Virus record (IMG/VR): IMGVR_UViG_2711768060_000001
Coordinates: 1 to 12,660 of that record
Length of the DNA stretch: 12,660 nucleotides
Strand: one strand, 5' to 3'
Origin: a virus
Taxonomy: Duplodnaviria > Heunggongvirae > Uroviricota > Caudoviricetes
The notes under the pieces are model-generated. The model ran no database searches. It was not told where the DNA came from and saw only the letters and a program-made list of their open reading frames with translations. Both the position numbers and the translations under genes were made by a program. Shown piece by piece: positions 5,445 to 12,509 of this stretch (the first letter of the stretch is position 1; each line of letters starts with the position of its first letter).

Positions 5445-5475
5445 CTGTTGTCGTCAACAGGCAGCGTGCTATCAT
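5445..5475 (+). promoter_or_regulatory. Candidate promoter with overlapping palindrome for the parDE-like operon
   Basis: Palindrome CTGTTG-TCGT-CAACAG (5445-5460) overlapping -35 TTGTCG (5448-5453); 16-nt spacer; -10 TATCAT (5470-5475); about 35 nt upstream of the antitoxin ATG. Confidence 0.35.
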
Positions 5476-5510
5476 CGAATAGTGTTCTATCCTACTCCGT
5501 GAGGTTTACC

Positions 5511-5768
5511 ATGCGTACAACCCAACAATTCAGCATTACATTAACTAACGAGATGGCTGACATGGTGCGCGCCCGTGTGGCTTCCGGTGCCTATGCTTCA
5601 GAAAGCGAGGTCATTCGTGAAGGGCTTCGCGCACTGAATGAGCGCGATAAAGCAATCGAAGCGTGGTTAACGCATTCAGCCGCCCCCTCTCTTGATTCTA
5701 TCCGCGAAAATCCAAACAACGGACGCTCCATTTCACAGGTTCGCGCCGCGATTCGATCCGGGAAGTAA
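5511..5768 (+). CDS. parD: ParD-family (ribbon-helix-helix) antitoxin
   Basis: ATG at 5511 with GAGG 8 nt upstream (ORF track start 5448 is a non-ATG extension). 85 aa, motif YASESEVIREGLRALNERD typical of ParD antitoxins; directly upstream of a ParE-like toxin. Confidence 0.8.
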   Translation: MRTTQQFSITLTNEMADMVRARVASGAYASESEVIREGLRALNERDKAIEAWLTHSAAPSLDSIRENPNNGRSISQVRAAIRSGK

Positions 5769-5773
5769 TCTGC

Positions 5774-6073
5774 ATGACATATGAAGTCATCATTACTCCT
5801 GAGGCCGAACAACAAATAATCAACCTGCACAGATATATAACGGAGAAAGCAGGAAGCGTCATTGCTGACAATTATGCCAATGCGCTTCTTGATTATCTTG
5901 ATGGGTTTTCTACATTCCCGCATCGGGGCAATAAACGCGATGATATTCGCCAGGGGATGCGGGTAACTCATTTCCGCCACAGAACGATTATTGCTTTTGC
6001 CGTTGATGGCAGAAAAGTCTTTATTGTCGGTATCTATCATGGTGGGCAAAGTTATGAAACCGATTTCTTATAA
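5774..6073 (+). CDS. parE: ParE-family toxin
   Basis: 99 aa, 5 nt after the antitoxin stop; ParE/RelE-fold pattern (MTYEVIITPEAEQQIINLHRYI ... RKVFIVGIYHGGQ). Confidence 0.85.
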   Translation: MTYEVIITPEAEQQIINLHRYITEKAGSVIADNYANALLDYLDGFSTFPHRGNKRDDIRQGMRVTHFRHRTIIAFAVDGRKVFIVGIYHGGQSYETDFL

Positions 6074-8970: not shown

Positions 8971-9636
8971 TCAAACAAACCCAGCCGCTTTCCGGCGTTC
9001 ATATTCCTGTTTCAGCAACTCAATTGGAGTTGGCCCCGACGGGCGTTCTGGTGCAGCCAGTTGCCGCCGTACGGGCGGAACACTGAAGCCGTCACCAACA
9101 TGCTTTGCCCATTTCGCCAGTTGCCGTTCTGCAAGTCGTTTTAACTCCCCTTCGGTCATCTGGCGCTCAATCCCCTTTGAACGCATCTCGAGGCAAATGT
9201 GATACAGCACAGGCTGAGACCACGGGTATTTATCGCTTCCGTCGTATCGCCAGGACTCGTTGCGCCAGCGGCGGTACTCCTCCATCACGGCATCCACAGT
9301 CAAACCAAACGGATTTGCCCCACTTTCCGAAATCAACGCCACAAACTCTGCCAGGTCAGGAGGCCATGTTTCACCCGCCCGACAACGCTCCATGCACTGG
9401 CGGCAGACCTGCCGGATTTGCTGCTCAGTCATCGCGCCAATCTGTGCAATCCAGAGCTTCGAAGGTGCGGCCCCGTTCTTCTGAGTCCAGCGGTTCGAAT
9501 AAACCTCCCCCATGAGTTCCCACAGCTTCCACGCCGTTTCCGTCGCTGATAAATCCGTTTTCACGTTCCCACTGCTCACGTGCTGCCCGAATTTCCTGAA
9601 CTGCCCGTGATGCGGTGCCACCTGGCGTTGCTGCAT
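8971..9636 (-). CDS. Lambda-P-like replication protein (helicase loader)
   Basis: 221 aa; ATG at 9636 with AAGGGGGTGA SD. Segments such as [27 protein letters not shown] and [20 protein letters not shown] parallel recalled lambda P segments (FVAWCREE, YPWKSNAHYWLVTNL, TDAELRRKAADELVHMTARI). Overlaps the O-like ORF by 212 nt in another frame. Confidence 0.75.
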
Positions 9637-10465
9637 GGCTCACCCCCTTGCTGACTGGTTTAACCTGCGCCCTGACGTGATTTACGTGACGGGCGAATTT
9701 CTGCTCCCACTGAACCTGCGTGAAAACTTTCCCCTCCGCTGCCCAGTAGTCCCGGAAGGCGGCAAGTTCAGCAGGTGTAAATTCCGGCTCCGGCAGAGCC
9801 ACTCCCCACAGTGCAGCCCGTTGTCGGAAATCGGGCGACGGATTCCAGCCGTCGGTCATCGGAAATTTTCCGATGGGTTCGCTCAGACCTTCCAGGTAAT
9901 CAGGTTCCGCTGCCTGCAACGGCGCGCCATTCGACTCACTGGTCGGAGCGATCTCGCGCACGCGCGCGCTATGTGTGGGGTTTAATTCTTTATCTGTATC
10001 TGTATCTGTCGTGACTCGTCGTGACATGTCGTGACATATGCGTGACTCGTCGTGACATTCCTCATTCTGTTTTCGTAATTTTTCCCTCTCACGCTGCGCT
10101 CTCTTGCGCTCTGCCGGGGATTTCGCGGTTTGAGAAACGTTACCGTTGTCCTCTTTCAGTACCTGGCGTTTTTCCCATCCAGTGATTAAATCTCCATCAA
10201 GCACCCGCCCCTGCATTGCTTGCAAAATTGAATCAATTACGTCTTCCGTCACATCAAGCGCACTTGCTAAATCTTCCGTCGTGACATCAATGTGACCCCG
10301 TAGTGACACGCCGTGACATGTCGTGACATTTCGTGACGCGCTAACCAGAAGGTGGATATACACCGCCATCACTGTTGCAATCGGCTGTCCTGACACCCTT
10401 GAAATTGTTCGCCACTTAGGGTCATTTGGCATGTCATGCCATAATCTGAGCCAGGCGTTGGCCAT
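9425..10465 (-). CDS. Replication initiator (lambda-O-like role) with iteron arrays embedded in its coding sequence
   Basis: ORF track start 10471 is GTG; ATG at 10465 has AGAGGTGA SD. Positioned directly upstream of the P-like gene. Contains two arrays of GTGAC-core direct repeats and a (TD)3 linker encoded by (TATCTG)3. Confidence 0.7.
   Translation of the reverse strand: MANAWLRLWHDMPNDPKWRTISRVSGQPIATVMAVYIHLLVSASRNVTTCHGVSLRGHIDVTTEDLASALDVTEDVIDSILQAMQGRVLDGDLITGWEKRQVLKEDNGNVSQTAKSPAERKRAQREREKLRKQNEECHDESRICHDMSRRVTTDTDTDKELNPTHSARVREIAPTSESNGAPLQAAEPDYLEGLSEPIGKFPMTDGWNPSPDFRQRAALWGVALPEPEFTPAELAAFRDYWAAEGKVFTQVQWEQKFARHVNHVRAQVKPVSKGVSHAATPGGTASRAVQEIRAAREQWERENGFISDGNGVEAVGTHGGGLFEPLDSEERGRTFEALDCTDWRDD
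9991..10056. repeat. (TATCTG)x3 tandem repeat followed by iteron array A: five (T)CGTGAC repeats at 10-11 bp spacing
   Basis: TATCTG x3 at 9991-10008; GTGAC cores at 10011, 10021, 10031, 10042 and 10052. An alternating CG tract (9951-9970) lies adjacent. Confidence 0.65.
10278..10337. repeat. Iteron array B: six GTGAC-core direct repeats at 10-11 bp spacing
   Basis: GTGAC at 10281, 10292, 10303, 10313, 10323 and 10333, same orientation as array A and about 225 bp from it; inside the N-terminal coding region of the O-like gene. Confidence 0.6.
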
Positions 10466-10536
10466 ACTCACCTCTTCTGATACCGAATCTTTTTACTCAC
10501 GAGTTTCCGGAAGCGATCCGGTATGAATATTGTCAG

Positions 10537-10962
10537 TCAATGTACCGCCACAGCATTTCCTGCCGGGCCACCACGATTCATCTGATCGAACAAAGTGATC
10601 GCTGATGCAACAAACTCGTCGATATCTTTCACCAGGCGCTCCCGTCGCTCGACAAGCTCCCGGTGATATTCCGAACTGTGGCTGCGCATCCAGGCCACCA
10701 GCGGAGGTGGCATTGCCTTTTCGATCGCTGGTAACAGCGCCTGAATTTTTTCAACAGCATCAGGAGTGTCTTTATCTAGCCAACGGAAAATCTTTTGGGT
10801 GTTGAGATAAAGTGCGTTGTGCTTGCTGTCGTTATGCAGAACCGGAAACGTCATACCCAGCTCAAAATAAGCCCTGGTTATTTCAGCTGCCGGAACTTTT
10901 TCACCGTCCGGATGCGCCCAGGCATTCATCGCCATGCGGATGTGTTCATGCTTGATTTTCAT
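10537..10962 (-). CDS. ydaT: YdaT-like protein (Rac prophage family; CII-like, toxic on derepression)
   Basis: 141 aa; begins MKIKHEHI and ends ...VH like recalled Rac YdaT; its start overlaps the stop of the upstream YdaS-like gene. Confidence 0.75.
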   Translation of the reverse strand: MKIKHEHIRMAMNAWAHPDGEKVPAAEITRAYFELGMTFPVLHNDSKHNALYLNTQKIFRWLDKDTPDAVEKIQALLPAIEKAMPPPLVAWMRSHSSEYHRELVERRERLVKDIDEFVASAITLFDQMNRGGPAGNAVAVH

Positions 10963-11218
10963 GAATCAACTCCGGCGCATTTGATGTGTTAGTCTTACAT
11001 CCAACAGGTAAACCGTCGGTTGGGTTAGGATAAATATCAGGGCGAATTTCATGCGGGGTAACTTCCCACTTCATTAACTGGCATAACGGAATTACCTGCT
11101 TTGGGGGAACGCCAAAGCTAAACCATTGCCAAACGGTCTGTTGAGCGACCCCCATATAGCGACCTATTTCAGCTTGAGTGTATTTCTGCCTAATTTTTTC
11201 GCGAGTGCTATCTAGCAT
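10946..11218 (-). CDS. ydaS: YdaS-like Cro-type HTH protein
   Basis: ATG at 11218 with GAGGAGGG SD (ORF track start 11272 is an upstream extension); motif GVAQQTVWQWFSFGVPPKQV...IRPD; divergent from the repressor gene. Confidence 0.7.
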   Translation of the reverse strand: MLDSTREKIRQKYTQAEIGRYMGVAQQTVWQWFSFGVPPKQVIPLCQLMKWEVTPHEIRPDIYPNPTDGLPVGCKTNTSNAPELIHENQA

Positions 11219-11253
11219 TTTGCCCTCCTCTGAAAACGATAAACAAAGCCTAC

Positions 11254-11288
11254 AATAAAAAACTGTATGCAATCAACAGTTTTTTATT
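11254..11288. promoter_or_regulatory. Operator-like perfect palindrome AATAAAAAACTGT-N9-ACAGTTTTTTATT in the divergent promoter region
   Basis: 13-bp arms at 11254-11266 and 11276-11288 are exact reverse complements; lies between the YdaS-like and repressor genes; the same CTGT/ACAG core recurs at 12288-12324. Confidence 0.5.
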
Positions 11289-11326
11289 GTGATGCTTTTA
11301 ACAGTATTTACCTGTAAAATTGAATA

Positions 11327-11728
11327 ATGATGAACGCCCTAGAAGTATCTATGTACAGAATCAGCAAGCTTCTTCAGGAAACTGGATGGAGCCAGGCTGA
11401 ACTTGCCCGTAGAATTGGTGTGACACAACAAACTGTTCAACAATGGGTCAGCGGTAAGGCCACACCTAAAGCCTCAAGTTTGGATAAACTGGTTGAGGTT
11501 ACAGGGCATCCATTGCATTGGTTTTTATTGCCTCCAGAAGAGGGGGAGCAAATTTTCACCCCTGACACGATGAAAATTGGTCCTCGCCAACGCGAACTGC
11601 TCCAAGCTTTTAGTGCGTTTCCAGAGGAAGACCAAGAAAAAATGCTTCAAGAAATCAAAGACAAGAAAAAATCAATGGAAGAAACCATTGCCCGGTGGTT
11701 GGCGGCACAAAAAAGCCGCCGGGCGTGA
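11327..11728 (+). CDS. Prophage repressor, XRE/CI-type HTH, lacking a LexA-like S24 protease domain (RacR-like role)
   Basis: 133 aa; N-terminal HTH (SQAELARRIGVTQQTVQQWVSGKATP); too short for a C-terminal autocleavage domain; divergent from YdaS-like; no SD, with -10-like TAAAAT (11315-11320) ending 6 nt before the ATG. Confidence 0.8.
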   Translation: MMNALEVSMYRISKLLQETGWSQAELARRIGVTQQTVQQWVSGKATPKASSLDKLVEVTGHPLHWFLLPPEEGEQIFTPDTMKIGPRQRELLQAFSAFPEEDQEKMLQEIKDKKKSMEETIARWLAAQKSRRA

Positions 11729-11755
11729 CCACTGTACAAGAAGAGGAGTTATGCC

Positions 11756-11947
11756 ATGAATACAGCCCTTTCTCCGATAGTTTCAGAATTCGAAACTACC
11801 GAACAAGAAAACAGTTACAACGAATGGTTGCGCGCTAAAGTGGCGTTAAGCCTTGCAGACCCTCGCCCCGCAATTCCACATGACGAGGTAATGGCTGAAA
11901 TGGAAAATCTTATTGCTCAAATTGCTGCAACTAACAGGAGCGAGTAA
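11756..11947 (+). CDS. Putative antitoxin of a RelE/ParE-type toxin-antitoxin pair
   Basis: 63 aa; GAGGAG SD; stop overlaps the start of the downstream toxin (TAATG). Assignment mainly by genetic context. Confidence 0.65.
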   Translation: MNTALSPIVSEFETTEQENSYNEWLRAKVALSLADPRPAIPHDEVMAEMENLIAQIAATNRSE

Positions 11948-12234
11948 TGTTACCCATTTTATGGCTACCATCTGCTCGCGATGATTTGCGTCAGATCGTA
12001 ACCTATATTGCTAAGGAAAACATTCCTGCAGCACGCAGACTAAAAATACGTATTGAAACGTCTGTTTTAGCCCTCTCTGAGCATCCATATCTATATCCGC
12101 TAAGTGATCGAGTATCCGGTTTGCGGGAAATTGTGGTTCACCCTAATTATATCGTGTTGTACCGAGTAGCAACTTCAAGCATTGAAATTGCGAATATTGT
12201 GCATGCCCGTCGACAATTTCCCTTCTCTATCTGA
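11947..12234 (+). CDS. RelE/ParE-superfamily toxin
   Basis: 95 aa; MLPILWLPSARDDLRQIVTYIAKENIPAARRL...EIVVHPNYIVLYRV...IEIANIVHARR fits the RelE/ParE pattern; translationally coupled to the antitoxin. Confidence 0.8.
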   Translation: MLPILWLPSARDDLRQIVTYIAKENIPAARRLKIRIETSVLALSEHPYLYPLSDRVSGLREIVVHPNYIVLYRVATSSIEIANIVHARRQFPFSI

Positions 12235-12250
12235 GCCGAACAATTTCCAT

Positions 12251-12277
12251 ACTCCCTCACTCGAGGGAGTTTTTTTG
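12251..12277 (+). terminator. Rho-independent terminator after the toxin gene
   Basis: Stem ACTCCCTC (12251-12258) / GAGGGAGT (12263-12270), 4-nt loop, T-run 12270-12276. Confidence 0.65.
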
Positions 12278-12287
12278 CCTAAAACAA

Positions 12288-12330
12288 CAATTAAAAACTG
12301 TTGACACAAAACAGTTTTTAATTGTAGATT
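12288..12330 (+). promoter_or_regulatory. Rightward early promoter overlapped by a 15-bp-arm operator palindrome (pL-like)
   Basis: Palindrome CAATTAAAAACTGTT-gacacaa-AACAGTTTTTAATTG (12288-12324); -35 TTGACA at 12301-12306 inside it; -10 TAGATT at 12325-12330 (18-nt spacer). Confidence 0.5.
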
Positions 12331-12509
12331 GTTTTTACCAACCCACCCCGCCCCACAGAACGCAGGGCAATACTTCGAGTTACCAGGCAGTGGTCAGGGG
12401 TTAAGTAGCCAGCCCGAGGCGTAAGAACATGACGGCAGGGTTCAACTTTAATAACTATGCAGCAGGTTTTTGTTCCGCTACCCCGGCGTTAAGGGGAAAT
12501 GAGGTCAAC

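Follow-up and report, generated by a model that had tools for sequence, protein, structure and literature searches.

Within the window, that is, the whole 12,660-nucleotide stretch of DNA that was analysed, three co-oriented ORFs encoding a repressor, an antitoxin and a toxin lie on the + strand just where the initial annotation had placed them, and an intrinsic terminator follows. The features of this unit are:

11327-11728, + strand: repressor ORF (133 aa; paaR1-type, CI/DicA analogue)
11756-11947, + strand: antitoxin ORF (63 aa; paaA-type)
11947-12234, + strand: toxin ORF (95 aa; parE-type)
12251-12277, + strand: intrinsic terminator (hairpin plus T-run) at the end of the three-gene unit
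11700-11721, + strand: RNA hairpin at the repressor-antitoxin junction, within the last codons of the repressor
11722-11729 pairing with 11748-11755, + strand: second stem at the junction, around the antitoxin Shine-Dalgarno

All three ORFs are genuine genes rather than products of chance, as judged by their protein-family matches to HTH_3 (1.7e-13), PaaA2 (8.6e-22) and ParE_toxin (2.5e-15), respectively. The 27-nt gap between repressor and antitoxin genes (11729-11755) carries the antitoxin Shine-Dalgarno (GAGGAG, 11743-11748), and an AGGAG (11936-11940) lies ahead of the toxin ATG. The last A of the antitoxin stop codon TAA (11945-11947) is the first base of that ATG (11947-11949), which confirms the TAATG overlap described earlier at 11945-11949 and from which translational coupling of toxin to antitoxin was read. 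The terminator stem (12251-12270) is formed by 8 bp, including five G-C pairs, followed by seven T's; none of 200 shuffles equalled its fold (−13.7 kcal/mol; z = −3.8), in agreement with the strong terminator first proposed there, and the stem is kept in E. coli IHE3034 and in prophage Sp4 of E. coli O157:H7 Sakai, with differences confined to the loop.

From the repressor start to 12251, neither a + strand terminator-like site nor, in the consensus scan, a promoter-like site was found, and the earlier remark that nothing separates the repressor from the pair thus held. The G+C hairpin at 11700-11721 was rejected as an internal terminator, as it has no U-tract and was not flagged by the terminator scan. 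The junction RNA (11700-11755) folds at −28.3 kcal/mol (z = −3.0); z is −2.5 for the Sp4 junction and, at −0.3, falls short of significance for that of the PaaR2 type. The short gap, the absence of any + strand terminator or consensus promoter within the unit, and the terminator after parE all fit a one-operon reading, and the repressor and toxin-antitoxin (TA) genes are probably co-transcribed here, as in the O157:H7 paaR systems, whose three genes are co-transcribed from a promoter upstream of paaR (PMC4803016, PMC8630535).

The repressor combines an N-terminal HTH with a short C-terminal helical region. Apart from HTH_3, it matched Phage_CI_repr in Pfam (9.7e-06) and the DicA subfamily model (4.1e-14 over residues 11-130, with a score of 52.6 that is below the cut-off of 101); the profile search also returned weak HipB, MqsA and HigA matches. 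It is 100% identical to WP_001329851.1 of IHE3034 and 97.7% to ECs_1069 of Sakai Sp4 (‘phage repressor protein'). The 17 Pfam and 20 NCBIfam matches include no Peptidase_S24/LexA-type domain and the repressor is only 133 aa long, which bears out the claim that a LexA-type protease domain is missing; PaaR2, the repressor of the paralogous paaR2-paaA2-parE2 system, reportedly has no autocleavage motif either and does not respond to mitomycin C (PMC8630535). Among PDB sequences there was no solved PaaR structure, the best matches being the 434 repressor HTH. The repressor is 34% identical to PaaR2 overall: its N-terminal DNA-binding half is unrelated to that of PaaR2, and residues from about 86 to 133 are roughly two-thirds identical to the C-terminal part of PaaR2, with the common block ELLQxFSAFPE...SME..IARW.AAQK.RRA. 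Homologous repressors occupy the CI position in Gifsy-2 (33% identity over 104 aa; E = 4e-20) and in phages of Klebsiella and Salmonella, all without the TA pair and with other small genes in the slot downstream. The C-terminal region was also considered as exclusive to TA loci and this was rejected, as LLxxF...PE is found in the TA-less CI of Gifsy-2 and Klebsiella phages as well; the PaaR-specific part is only the last 25 or so residues.

The antitoxin matched Pfam PaaA2 (PF21217) as the only family above cut-off, NCBIfam NF050103 (3.1e-27) and solved PaaA2 (PDB 3zbe/5cw7; 2.8e-23), and is 88.9, 93.7 and 68% identical to Sp4 ECs_1068, the IHE3034 variant and PaaA2, respectively. Pfam and NCBIfam revealed no DNA-binding domain and no ParD/RHH match in its 63 aa, and it is not the RHH ParD antitoxin of canonical parDE (RK2 type). 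A separate pair in the window, at 5448-6073, does match ParD. The toxin, a Pfam ParE_toxin (PF05016), matched ParE2 of the crystallised PaaA2-ParE2 complex (PDB 5cw7_B) at 5.5e-37 over residues 1-93, and its identities to Sp4 ECs_1067, the IHE3034 variant and ParE2 are 86.3, 96.8 and 65%. All four of its matches among solved chains are ParE or ‘plasmid stabilization' proteins, with no RelE chain among PDB matches at E <= 1e-3, and the generic RelE_StbE subfamily model was barely passed (30.0 bits versus 27.9). For the pair first put down as RelE/ParE-type, the profile searches upheld ParE for the toxin, whereas the antitoxin proved to be PaaA2 and not ParD. PADLOC defence models matched neither antitoxin nor toxin and gave only generic HTH matches for the repressor, and assignment of the pair to a catalogued defence system was dropped.

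The three genes are flanked by the elements of a putative genetic switch:

10537-10962, − strand: ydaT-like gene, CII analogue (141 aa; Pfam YdaT_toxin, 1.6e-08)
10946-11218, − strand: ydaS-like gene, Cro analogue (90 aa; Pfam YdaS_toxin, 1.2e-09)
10952-10969, ydaS/ydaT junction: putative YdaT operator TTGATT-N6-AATCAA (published OM site)
11247-11276, − strand: PR-like promoter into ydaS (TTGATT at 11276-11271, 18 nt, TAGGCT at 11252-11247)
11252-11266, 11276-11290 and 11301-11315: three predicted OR operators of 15 bp, ACART-N5-AYTGT
11292-11320, + strand: PRM-like promoter (ATGCTT, 17 nt, TAAAAT at 11315-11320; score 8.46)
12287-12330, + strand: predicted OL/PL, with operators at 12287-12301 and 12311-12325, 24 bp apart
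within OL, + strand: PL promoter, TTGACA (12301-12306), 18 nt, TAGATT (12325-12330), whose score of 13.9 is the best of the region

The ydaT product matched PHROG 163 (‘CII-like transcriptional activator'; 1e-44) and is 82-84% identical to YdaT of Sp4, IHE3034 and the CP-933P type, while the ydaS product, with its start (ATG 11218) taken from the RefSeq annotation of IHE3034, matched PHROG 35 (‘transcriptional repressor'; 1.1e-28) and is 98.9% identical to Sakai Sp4 ECs_1070. A DnaT/O-type replication gene (9425-10471) lies on the ydaS-ydaT side. The neighbours are the same in IHE3034, Sp4 and Sp12 and agree with the published locus, with divergent ydaS-ydaT and the DnaT/O-type gene on one side and DUF1391/dicB/kil on the other. 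For the YdaT operator, whose motif and role, with OM overlapping a PRE-type alternative operon start, have been reported (PMC9986795), one exact match was found in the window versus 0.04 expected by chance.

In the position-weight promoter scan (window-wide 99.9th percentile, 6.3), the PR-like promoter, which presumably is used for ydaS, scored 8.75 and is the same in IHE3034 and Sp4. The −10 of the PRM-like promoter ends 6 nt before the A of ATG 11327 and no Shine-Dalgarno is present; from this spacing and absence, a leaderless repressor mRNA is predicted. The geometry equals that of paaR2 (GATAAT at 2097-2102 and ATG at 2109 in the paaR2 locus sequence), for which a leaderless start was found by 5′ RACE (PMC8630535). 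An extended −10 at the PRM-like promoter was rejected, as TG abuts TAAAAT instead of lying one base upstream.

All five matches to ACART-N5-AYTGT in the 12.66-kb window fall at OR or OL, with 1.35 expected anywhere. The start-to-start spacing of the predicted OR operators is 24 and 25 bp, and both their arms and OL/PL are unchanged in IHE3034 and Sp4. The predicted sites are thus multipartite (three OR plus two OL, 24-25 bp apart) and overlap the PR, PRM-like and PL promoters, of which PL reads rightward to the DUF1391/dicB/kil side. Because the DNA-binding half of the repressor is unrelated to that of PaaR2, operator assignments are not transferable from PaaR2 and rest on motif statistics, which suggest the operator binding and promoter use proposed here; PL933P, the analogue of the window's PL, is experimentally repressed (PMC8630535). 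The conserved leader of PL (12337-12500) was also considered as a structured RNA or nut/put-like element; this was rejected, as it folds no better than its shuffles do (z = +1.3), and Rfam over the whole window found only two tRNAs.

Collectively, a ParE-family toxin, a PaaA-family antitoxin without a DNA-binding domain, an upstream PaaR-homologous HTH gene and a lambdoid immunity region as the setting, with ydaS-ydaT in divergent orientation, identify the unit as a paaR-paaA-parE system. We are highly confident that it is a known three-component TA system, carried by a lambda-like prophage within its immunity region and of the immunity type (system 1) that occurs in E. coli O157:H7 prophage Sp4/CP-933M and in IHE3034, a confidence that extends to the whole explanation including switch and addiction. 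The unit had been called uncharacterised, yet its proteins are 86-98% identical to those of the O157:H7 Sp4 copy. There are exactly two copies in Sakai: one of the PaaR2 type in Sp12 (ECs_2279-2281), and one in Sp4, which we take to be CP-933M of EDL933, an equation that agrees with elimination between the two copies. A homologue of the paaR2 system has been located in CP-933M (PMC8630535). The three-component architecture was described by Hallez et al. 2010, as summarised in passages of PMC4803016, PMC8630535 and PMC3141249, and paaR2-paaA2-parE2 is an addictive operon under a CI-like non-cleavable repressor that opposes YdaS (Cro-like) and YdaT (CII-like) (PMC8630535; Jurenas 2021). The 1.2-kb unit was found at a coverage of at least 80% in 509 of 5426 complete E. 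coli genomes, and homologues of the TA pair in 842. A species-representative search for three-gene relatives yielded 17 loci, none of them enterobacterial and most of them two-gene modules.

The closest named system, paaR1-paaA1-parE1 of O157:H7 (CP-933M/Sp4), has the same gene order, lengths (133/63/95 aa), 27-nt gap and TAATG, and its operators and promoters are identical to those of the window. Divergence from Sp4 is greater in the antitoxin (89% identical) and the toxin (86%) than in the regulators (repressor 97.7%, YdaS 98.9%), with nucleotide identity falling to about 71-77% across parE, and the TA pair is nearer to the IHE3034 variant (94 and 97%). The paaR2-paaA2-parE2 system (CP-933P/Sp12; PDB 5cw7, 5cze, 3zbe) shares with the window the three-gene order in the cI-rexAB slot, a ydaS-ydaT pair in divergent orientation, a YdaT operator, OR together with OL/PL, the −10/ATG spacing of the leaderless type and a repressor that is non-cleavable, but is of a different immunity type: the N-terminal half of its repressor and its YdaS (18%) are unrelated, and its operators are GTTTAGTAA-type repeats (PMC8630535) instead of ACART-N5-AYTGT. 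Antitoxins of systems 1 and 2 are reported not to cross-neutralise (PMC4803016).

A comparison with lambda cI-rexAB has been drawn for the family (PMC8630535, PMC9986795). Both lambda and, as predicted, the window have a repressor gene followed by two accessory genes on one transcript, a three-operator OR with spacing of about 24 bp, OL/PL, divergent cro-cII and a leaderless repressor mRNA. However, the window repressor has neither homology to lambda CI beyond the HTH nor an S24 autocleavage domain, the cargo is a TA pair instead of RexAB, and OL has two operators, not three. The omega-epsilon-zeta operon of pSM19035 also combines an antitoxin lacking a DNA-binding domain with a separate upstream regulator (PMC8138530, PMC4803016), yet its proteins are unrelated, it is plasmid-borne and its regulator is not a phage switch repressor. 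DicA of Qin and the Gifsy-1 and Gifsy-2 repressors resemble the window repressor in size, two-part architecture and genomic position, but are not followed by a TA pair in their loci. In the Gifsy phages, antirepressors under LexA control inactivate the repressor; no antirepressor gene was found in the window.

We propose that the repressor binds the predicted 15-bp operators that flank its operon, three in OR and two in OL. It would thereby shut off PL and PR, the latter serving ydaS/ydaT (Cro/CII analogues) and then the replication genes, and would autoregulate its own promoter, which is weak, of the PRM type and probably gives a leaderless mRNA. Antitoxin and toxin genes would be carried on the repressor transcript, each with its own Shine-Dalgarno, and a second start of the PRE type, activated by YdaT at the ydaS/ydaT junction, is probably another source of operon transcripts. 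PaaA would be an unstable antitoxin that wraps and neutralises ParE, a nucleoid-associated, SOS-inducing toxin; if so, loss of the locus would kill or arrest the cell, and such addiction would stabilise the prophage immunity region. For paaR2-paaA2-parE2, the operon structure, repression (of both PR and PL by PaaR2), bistability, leaderless start and addiction have been shown, as have toxicity and neutralisation for ParE2/PaaA2 and plasmid stabilisation by post-segregational killing that depends on ClpAP/ClpXP (PMC8630535). For system 1, toxicity and the lack of cross-neutralisation with system 2 are summarised in a review (PMC4803016), and by analogy the toxin of the window is likely toxic.

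The initial interpretation was partly supported. Its anatomy was right, and a post-segregational safeguard, as had been suggested, agrees with the killing exerted by the paralogue; the idea that toxin activity is tied to the lysogenic state sits poorly with the paralogue, whose TA genes are transcribed in both switch states and whose ParE2-dependent SOS induction was seen in neither (PMC8630535).

The pair sits in the rexA-rexB position between cI and OL/PL (PMC9986795; window layout), and could mainly serve phage exclusion or abortive infection, as a stand-in for rexA-rexB, and not addiction or prophage stabilisation. That TA-less relatives fill the slot with other small genes is as expected of a slot for accessory genes. 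In general, phage defence is among the functions that type II TA systems can have. Given that PADLOC matched neither PaaA nor ParE, and that post-segregational killing with plasmid stabilisation is the sole phenotype reported for the family (PMC8630535), we regard exclusion as the main role as unlikely. An autonomous two-gene module, driven by a promoter of its own and adjoining the repressor gene without functional coupling to it, is in our view very unlikely: the 27-nt gap without + strand terminator, the consensus scan that passed no promoter at 11327-11756, the co-transcription of the O157:H7 systems from upstream of paaR, and the three-gene order kept across heteroimmune loci, with a mosaic block made of the repressor 3′ end plus the TA genes, all argue for coupling, even though the PaaA-ParE modules of Bartonella, Sphingomonas, Rhodobacterales and other taxa consist of two genes and lack a co-oriented upstream regulator, and a reporter behind the paralogue's TA genes was active in either state of the switch (PMC8630535). 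Within the repressor gene there are weak promoter-like matches, such as TGGAGC-17-TAGAAT at 11387/11410, which leave room for some repressor-independent TA transcription. Finally, that the upstream gene is a dedicated TA regulator, a DNA-binding half split off from an antitoxin and acting on its own operon only (raised and discussed in PMC8630535, and suggested by PaaA lacking a DNA-binding domain and by HTH-XRE being common in antitoxins, as in the weak HipB, MqsA and HigA matches), is most improbable, as the operator motif recurs about 1 kb away at OL/PL around an outward promoter, the gene is divergent to Cro/CII analogues beside replication genes, its homologues in Gifsy-2 and in Klebsiella and Salmonella phages are CI-position repressors with no TA pair, and PaaR2 represses PR and PL.

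The mosaic block common to heteroimmune PaaR1-type and PaaR2-type loci consists of the last 45 or so repressor codons, paaA and parE. A functional tie between this conserved tail of the repressor and the TA pair is highly doubtful; were there one, the state of the labile antitoxin or the freed toxin could, for instance, feed back on oligomerisation or stability of the repressor, non-cleavable repressors would gain an input for induction or switching, and the TA pair would join the lysis-lysogeny decision instead of being a passive passenger.

The architecture, operon nature, embedding in a lambda-like switch and addiction of such systems were published from 2010 to 2021 and hence are known, and the locus carries little weight as a discovery; the initial annotation is a clean example of a three-component TA unit rebuilt correctly from raw sequence. 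What is new here is only the predicted operator set of the system-1 immunity type. This operator and promoter map of system 1 is explicit and testable, and could serve in comparisons between heteroimmune switches with a shared TA cargo.

The three genes are co-oriented on the + strand, as the initial annotation had them, and are followed by one terminator:

11327-11728, + strand: repressor ORF (133 aa; stop TGA at 11726-11728)
11756-11947, + strand: antitoxin ORF (63 aa)
11947-12234, + strand: toxin ORF (95 aa)
12251-12277, + strand: terminator (8-bp hairpin at 12251-12270, then a run of seven T's to 12277; terminator scan and folding)

The 27-nt gap between the repressor stop and the antitoxin gene contains GAGGAG (11743-11748), with the ATG seven bases downstream; the claimed TAATG (11945-11949), where the antitoxin stop overlaps the toxin start, is present, with AGGAG at 11936-11940. 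The terminator hairpin (−13.7 kcal/mol, z = −3.8) is the only + strand terminator-like site detected by the scan from the repressor start to the next promoter. A consensus promoter scan of 11327-11756 returned zero promoters and a position-weight scan weak candidates only, in agreement with the claims of a single closing terminator and of no internal terminator or obvious promoter.

Two neighbouring RNA hairpins span the repressor/antitoxin junction (11700-11755, + strand; −28.3 kcal/mol, z = −3.0):

11700-11721, + strand: hairpin within the final repressor codons
11722-11729 paired with 11748-11755, + strand: hairpin enclosing the antitoxin Shine-Dalgarno

As no U-tract follows them, they were rejected as a terminator; they might set the repressor-to-TA expression ratio. 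The equivalent fold is similar in prophage Sp4 of E. coli O157:H7 Sakai (z = −2.5) and not significant at the PaaR2-type locus.

The 63-aa product matches Pfam PaaA2 (PF21217, 8.6e-22) and NCBIfam NF050103 (3.1e-27), and the 95-aa product Pfam ParE_toxin (PF05016, 2.5e-15), bearing out the toxin-antitoxin assignment. A search of solved structures pairs the toxin with ParE2 of E. coli O157 (5cw7_B, 5.5e-37) and the antitoxin with PaaA2 (3zbe/5cw7, 2.8e-23), while the sole match of the repressor is the 434-repressor HTH. The repressor is an HTH_3/XRE protein that also matches, less strongly, the phage CI HTH family and the DicA subfamily. Pfam and NCBIfam profile searches found no S24 peptidase domain in it, so induction cannot proceed via RecA-stimulated autocleavage, as had been argued from the lack of a LexA-type protease domain. 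Gifsy prophages are induced through an antirepressor route; by analogy such a route is plausible for this prophage, and no antirepressor gene lies within the 12.66-kb window.

The unit had been called uncharacterised, yet it is already known as a paaR-paaA-parE system common in E. coli. Three-component systems of this kind in O157:H7 are credited to Hallez et al. 2010 in PMC4803016, PMC3141249 and PMC8630535; according to these accounts, a sigma-70 promoter upstream of paaR drives co-transcription of all three genes, full repression needs PaaR, ParE2 is nucleoid-associated and SOS-inducing, and the O157:H7 strain carries two paralogous systems, the antitoxin of neither neutralising the toxin of the other. 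Jurenas et al. 2021 (PMC8630535) described paaR2-paaA2-parE2 of prophage CP-933P as a bistable locus with a PL/OL module beyond the TA genes, in which PaaR2 is a CI analogue translated from leaderless mRNA, YdaS a Cro analogue and YdaT a CII analogue; PaaR2 is without an autocleavage motif and unresponsive to mitomycin C.

In Sakai, the TA pair occurs twice:

ECs_2279-2281: Sp12 trio (372/192/279 nt), PaaR2 type, annotated 'phage repressor protein CI'
ECs_1069-1067: Sp4 trio (402/192/288 nt)

The O55:H7 counterpart of the Sp12 repressor begins MQKKE, matching the sequence in PMC8630535, and over 92 residues the counterpart toxin does not differ from the PDB ParE2 chain. The repressor, antitoxin and toxin of the window are 97.7, 88.9 and 86.3% identical to those of Sp4, 100, 93.7 and 96.8% to those of E. 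coli IHE3034, and 33.8, 68.3 and 65.3% to the PaaR2 type; judged by this closeness to the first two and distance from the last, the unit belongs to the system-1 (paaR1-paaA1-parE1) immunity type. Sp4 presumably corresponds to CP-933M, consistent with the report of a homologue in CP-933M and of the identity of Sp12 to CP-933P (PMC8630535). Among 5426 complete E. coli genomes, 509 contain the 1.2-kb unit at a coverage of at least 80%, and 842 contain TA-pair homologues. Coverage of the whole window at a single place reaches at best ~66% (91.7% identity) in these genomes. Each module has close E. coli relatives, and by these comparisons the prophage is a mosaic, as such unrepresented among the 5426. 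Escherichia phage Evi (LR597642.1) is a deposited genome with a PaaR2-type trio, including an unannotated ParE homologue 67% identical to the window toxin (24917-25192, or 2501-2776 of the extracted locus L021).

Left of the unit lie genes on the opposite strand:

10946-11218, − strand: YdaS-like gene, Cro analogue (98.9% identical to Sp4)
10537-10962, − strand: YdaT-like gene, CII analogue (profile match)
left of ydaT, − strand: DnaT/O-type replication gene (profile match)

The Pfam names 'YdaS_toxin' and 'YdaT_toxin' (10537-11218, − strand) are misleading: the two are Cro and CII analogues, not a TA pair (PMC8630535, PMC9986795), and PHROGs labels them 'transcriptional repressor' and 'CII-like transcriptional activator', respectively. 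A second, canonical TA pair separates the DUF968/RusA/Q genes from the early region:

5448-5768, + strand: ParD-type RHH antitoxin (TIGR02606, 2.9e-14)
5774-6073, + strand: 99-aa ParE toxin (PF05016, 2.1e-10)

The true start of this antitoxin is probably an internal ATG. The pair occurs in 365 of the 5426 genomes, where it is annotated ParD/ParE, and a search of solved structures at E <= 1e-3 gave no homologue. Adjacent tRNA-Gly (tcc) and tRNA-Thr (tgt) genes (1046-1199, − strand) are found close to a DNA methyltransferase gene (1377-2423) and to the region of the Q-type antiterminator; in Sp12, a similar group of tRNA genes (Arg, Arg, Ile) adjoins the Q gene.

Nucleotide identity to the CP-933P type is about 80-90% in ydaT, about 33-45% across ydaS, OR and the repressor 5′ half, about 54-82% from the repressor 3′ end through paaA, and uneven (about 40-71%) in parE, and the window repressor and PaaR2 have in common only the C-terminal block ELLQxFSAFPE...SME..IARW.AAQK.RRA. 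These two features indicate that the immunity determinant is swapped between types and that the TA cargo and repressor-gene tail are retained. The Gifsy-2 repressor (33% identity, E = 4e-20) and a Klebsiella phage CI share the HTH, LLxxF..PE motif and slot of the window repressor, but have no TA pair downstream; on these sequences the small-repressor architecture is not specific to TA-bearing loci. PaaA-ParE in Bartonella, Sphingomonas, Rhodobacterales and others is mostly a two-gene pair without a co-oriented upstream regulator. The existence of both TA-less repressor loci and regulator-less TA pairs fits the published view of paaA-parE as an insertion into the accessory slot downstream of cI in a lambdoid immunity region. 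In the Bartonella loci (L006-L012 and L020), an XRE-type HTH gene lies ~0.3-0.9 kb from the pair, upstream divergent in some and downstream co-oriented in others, and L011 and L020 have a truncated or frameshifted toxin gene.

The divergent intergenic region contains a 39-nt perfect palindrome (11252-11290), of which a 79% identical copy lies just past the terminator (12287-12325); the 15-nt arms are pseudo-palindromes in their own right. Scanning of the whole window with the derived motif ACART-N5-AYTGT, one mismatch allowed, gave three matches at the putative OR (starts 11252, 11276 and 11301; spacing 24 and 25 bp), two at the putative OL (12287 and 12311; 24 bp) and zero elsewhere in the window, against 1.35 expected anywhere by chance. 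Three promoter candidates overlap these sites:

− strand: PR-like, TTGATT-18-TAGGCT
+ strand: PRM-like, weak, ATGCTT-17-TAAAAT
12301-12330, + strand: PL-like, TTGACA-18-TAGATT, the strongest promoter match of the region

Putative operators and promoter candidates are unchanged in IHE3034 and Sp4. From the PRM-like −10 end to the A of the repressor ATG is 6 nt and no Shine-Dalgarno precedes this ATG, the −10-to-ATG geometry being that of the experimentally leaderless paaR2; the operator, promoter and leaderless assignments are predictions from sequence. The predicted layout follows the OR/OL logic demonstrated in CP-933P, with other operator sequences. The published YdaT operator TTGATT-N6-AATCAA (PMC9986795) has one exact match in the window (10952-10969, ydaS/ydaT junction; 0.04 expected by chance). 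Two promoter-like matches inside parE, ATGATT-17-TATATT (11981-12009, + strand; score 10.3) and the antisense TTGCTA-15-TATAAT (12172-12146, − strand; 11.1), score above the PRM-like site and may be chance hits in A+T-rich coding sequence. The G+C-rich PL-leader (12336-12460, + strand) is nearly invariant in IHE3034 and Sp4, with 93-98% identity over its first 55-65 bases in 11 deposited coliphages (query ended at 12400); its RNA structure was not significant (z = +1.3) and Rfam gave no match.

Observed directly at this locus were the identity and synteny of the genes, the motif positions, and conservation; that the operators are bound, the promoters used, the three genes co-transcribed and the toxin toxic is inferred. 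Repressor dimers on OR and OL would silence PR and PL and tune the repressor's own weak promoter, whose transcript, ending at 12251-12277, would also supply PaaA and ParE by coupled translation; upon loss of the locus, proteolysis of PaaA would free ParE, resulting in addiction. A phage-exclusion role for the TA pair is possible given its position, which in lambda is the rexA-rexB slot, but finds no support from PADLOC or published phenotypes. An autonomous TA module simply adjoining the repressor gene, to which the weak promoter-like sites inside that gene would point, is the less likely reading: the gap measures 27 nt, internal signals are lacking, and the three-gene block is conserved. Two findings contradict the idea that the regulator is part of a 'split antitoxin': a second operator/promoter module lies at OL, and the regulator is homologous to CI-position repressors.

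For the preferred repressor-TA operon, the available accounts (PMC8630535, PMC4803016, PMC9986795) document operon structure, repression, leaderless start, YdaT activation, bistability and addiction in the paralogue only. The proposed tie of toxin activity to the lysogenic state is at odds with CP-933P, where TA transcription occurs in both switch states and ParE2 activity is undetectable (PMC8630535), while a post-segregational safeguard fits the stabilisation of an unstable plasmid by the paaR2-paaA2-parE2 locus (PMC8630535). Beyond what is known, this locus contributes one thing only: a predicted operator map of the system-1 immunity type, which can be tested.
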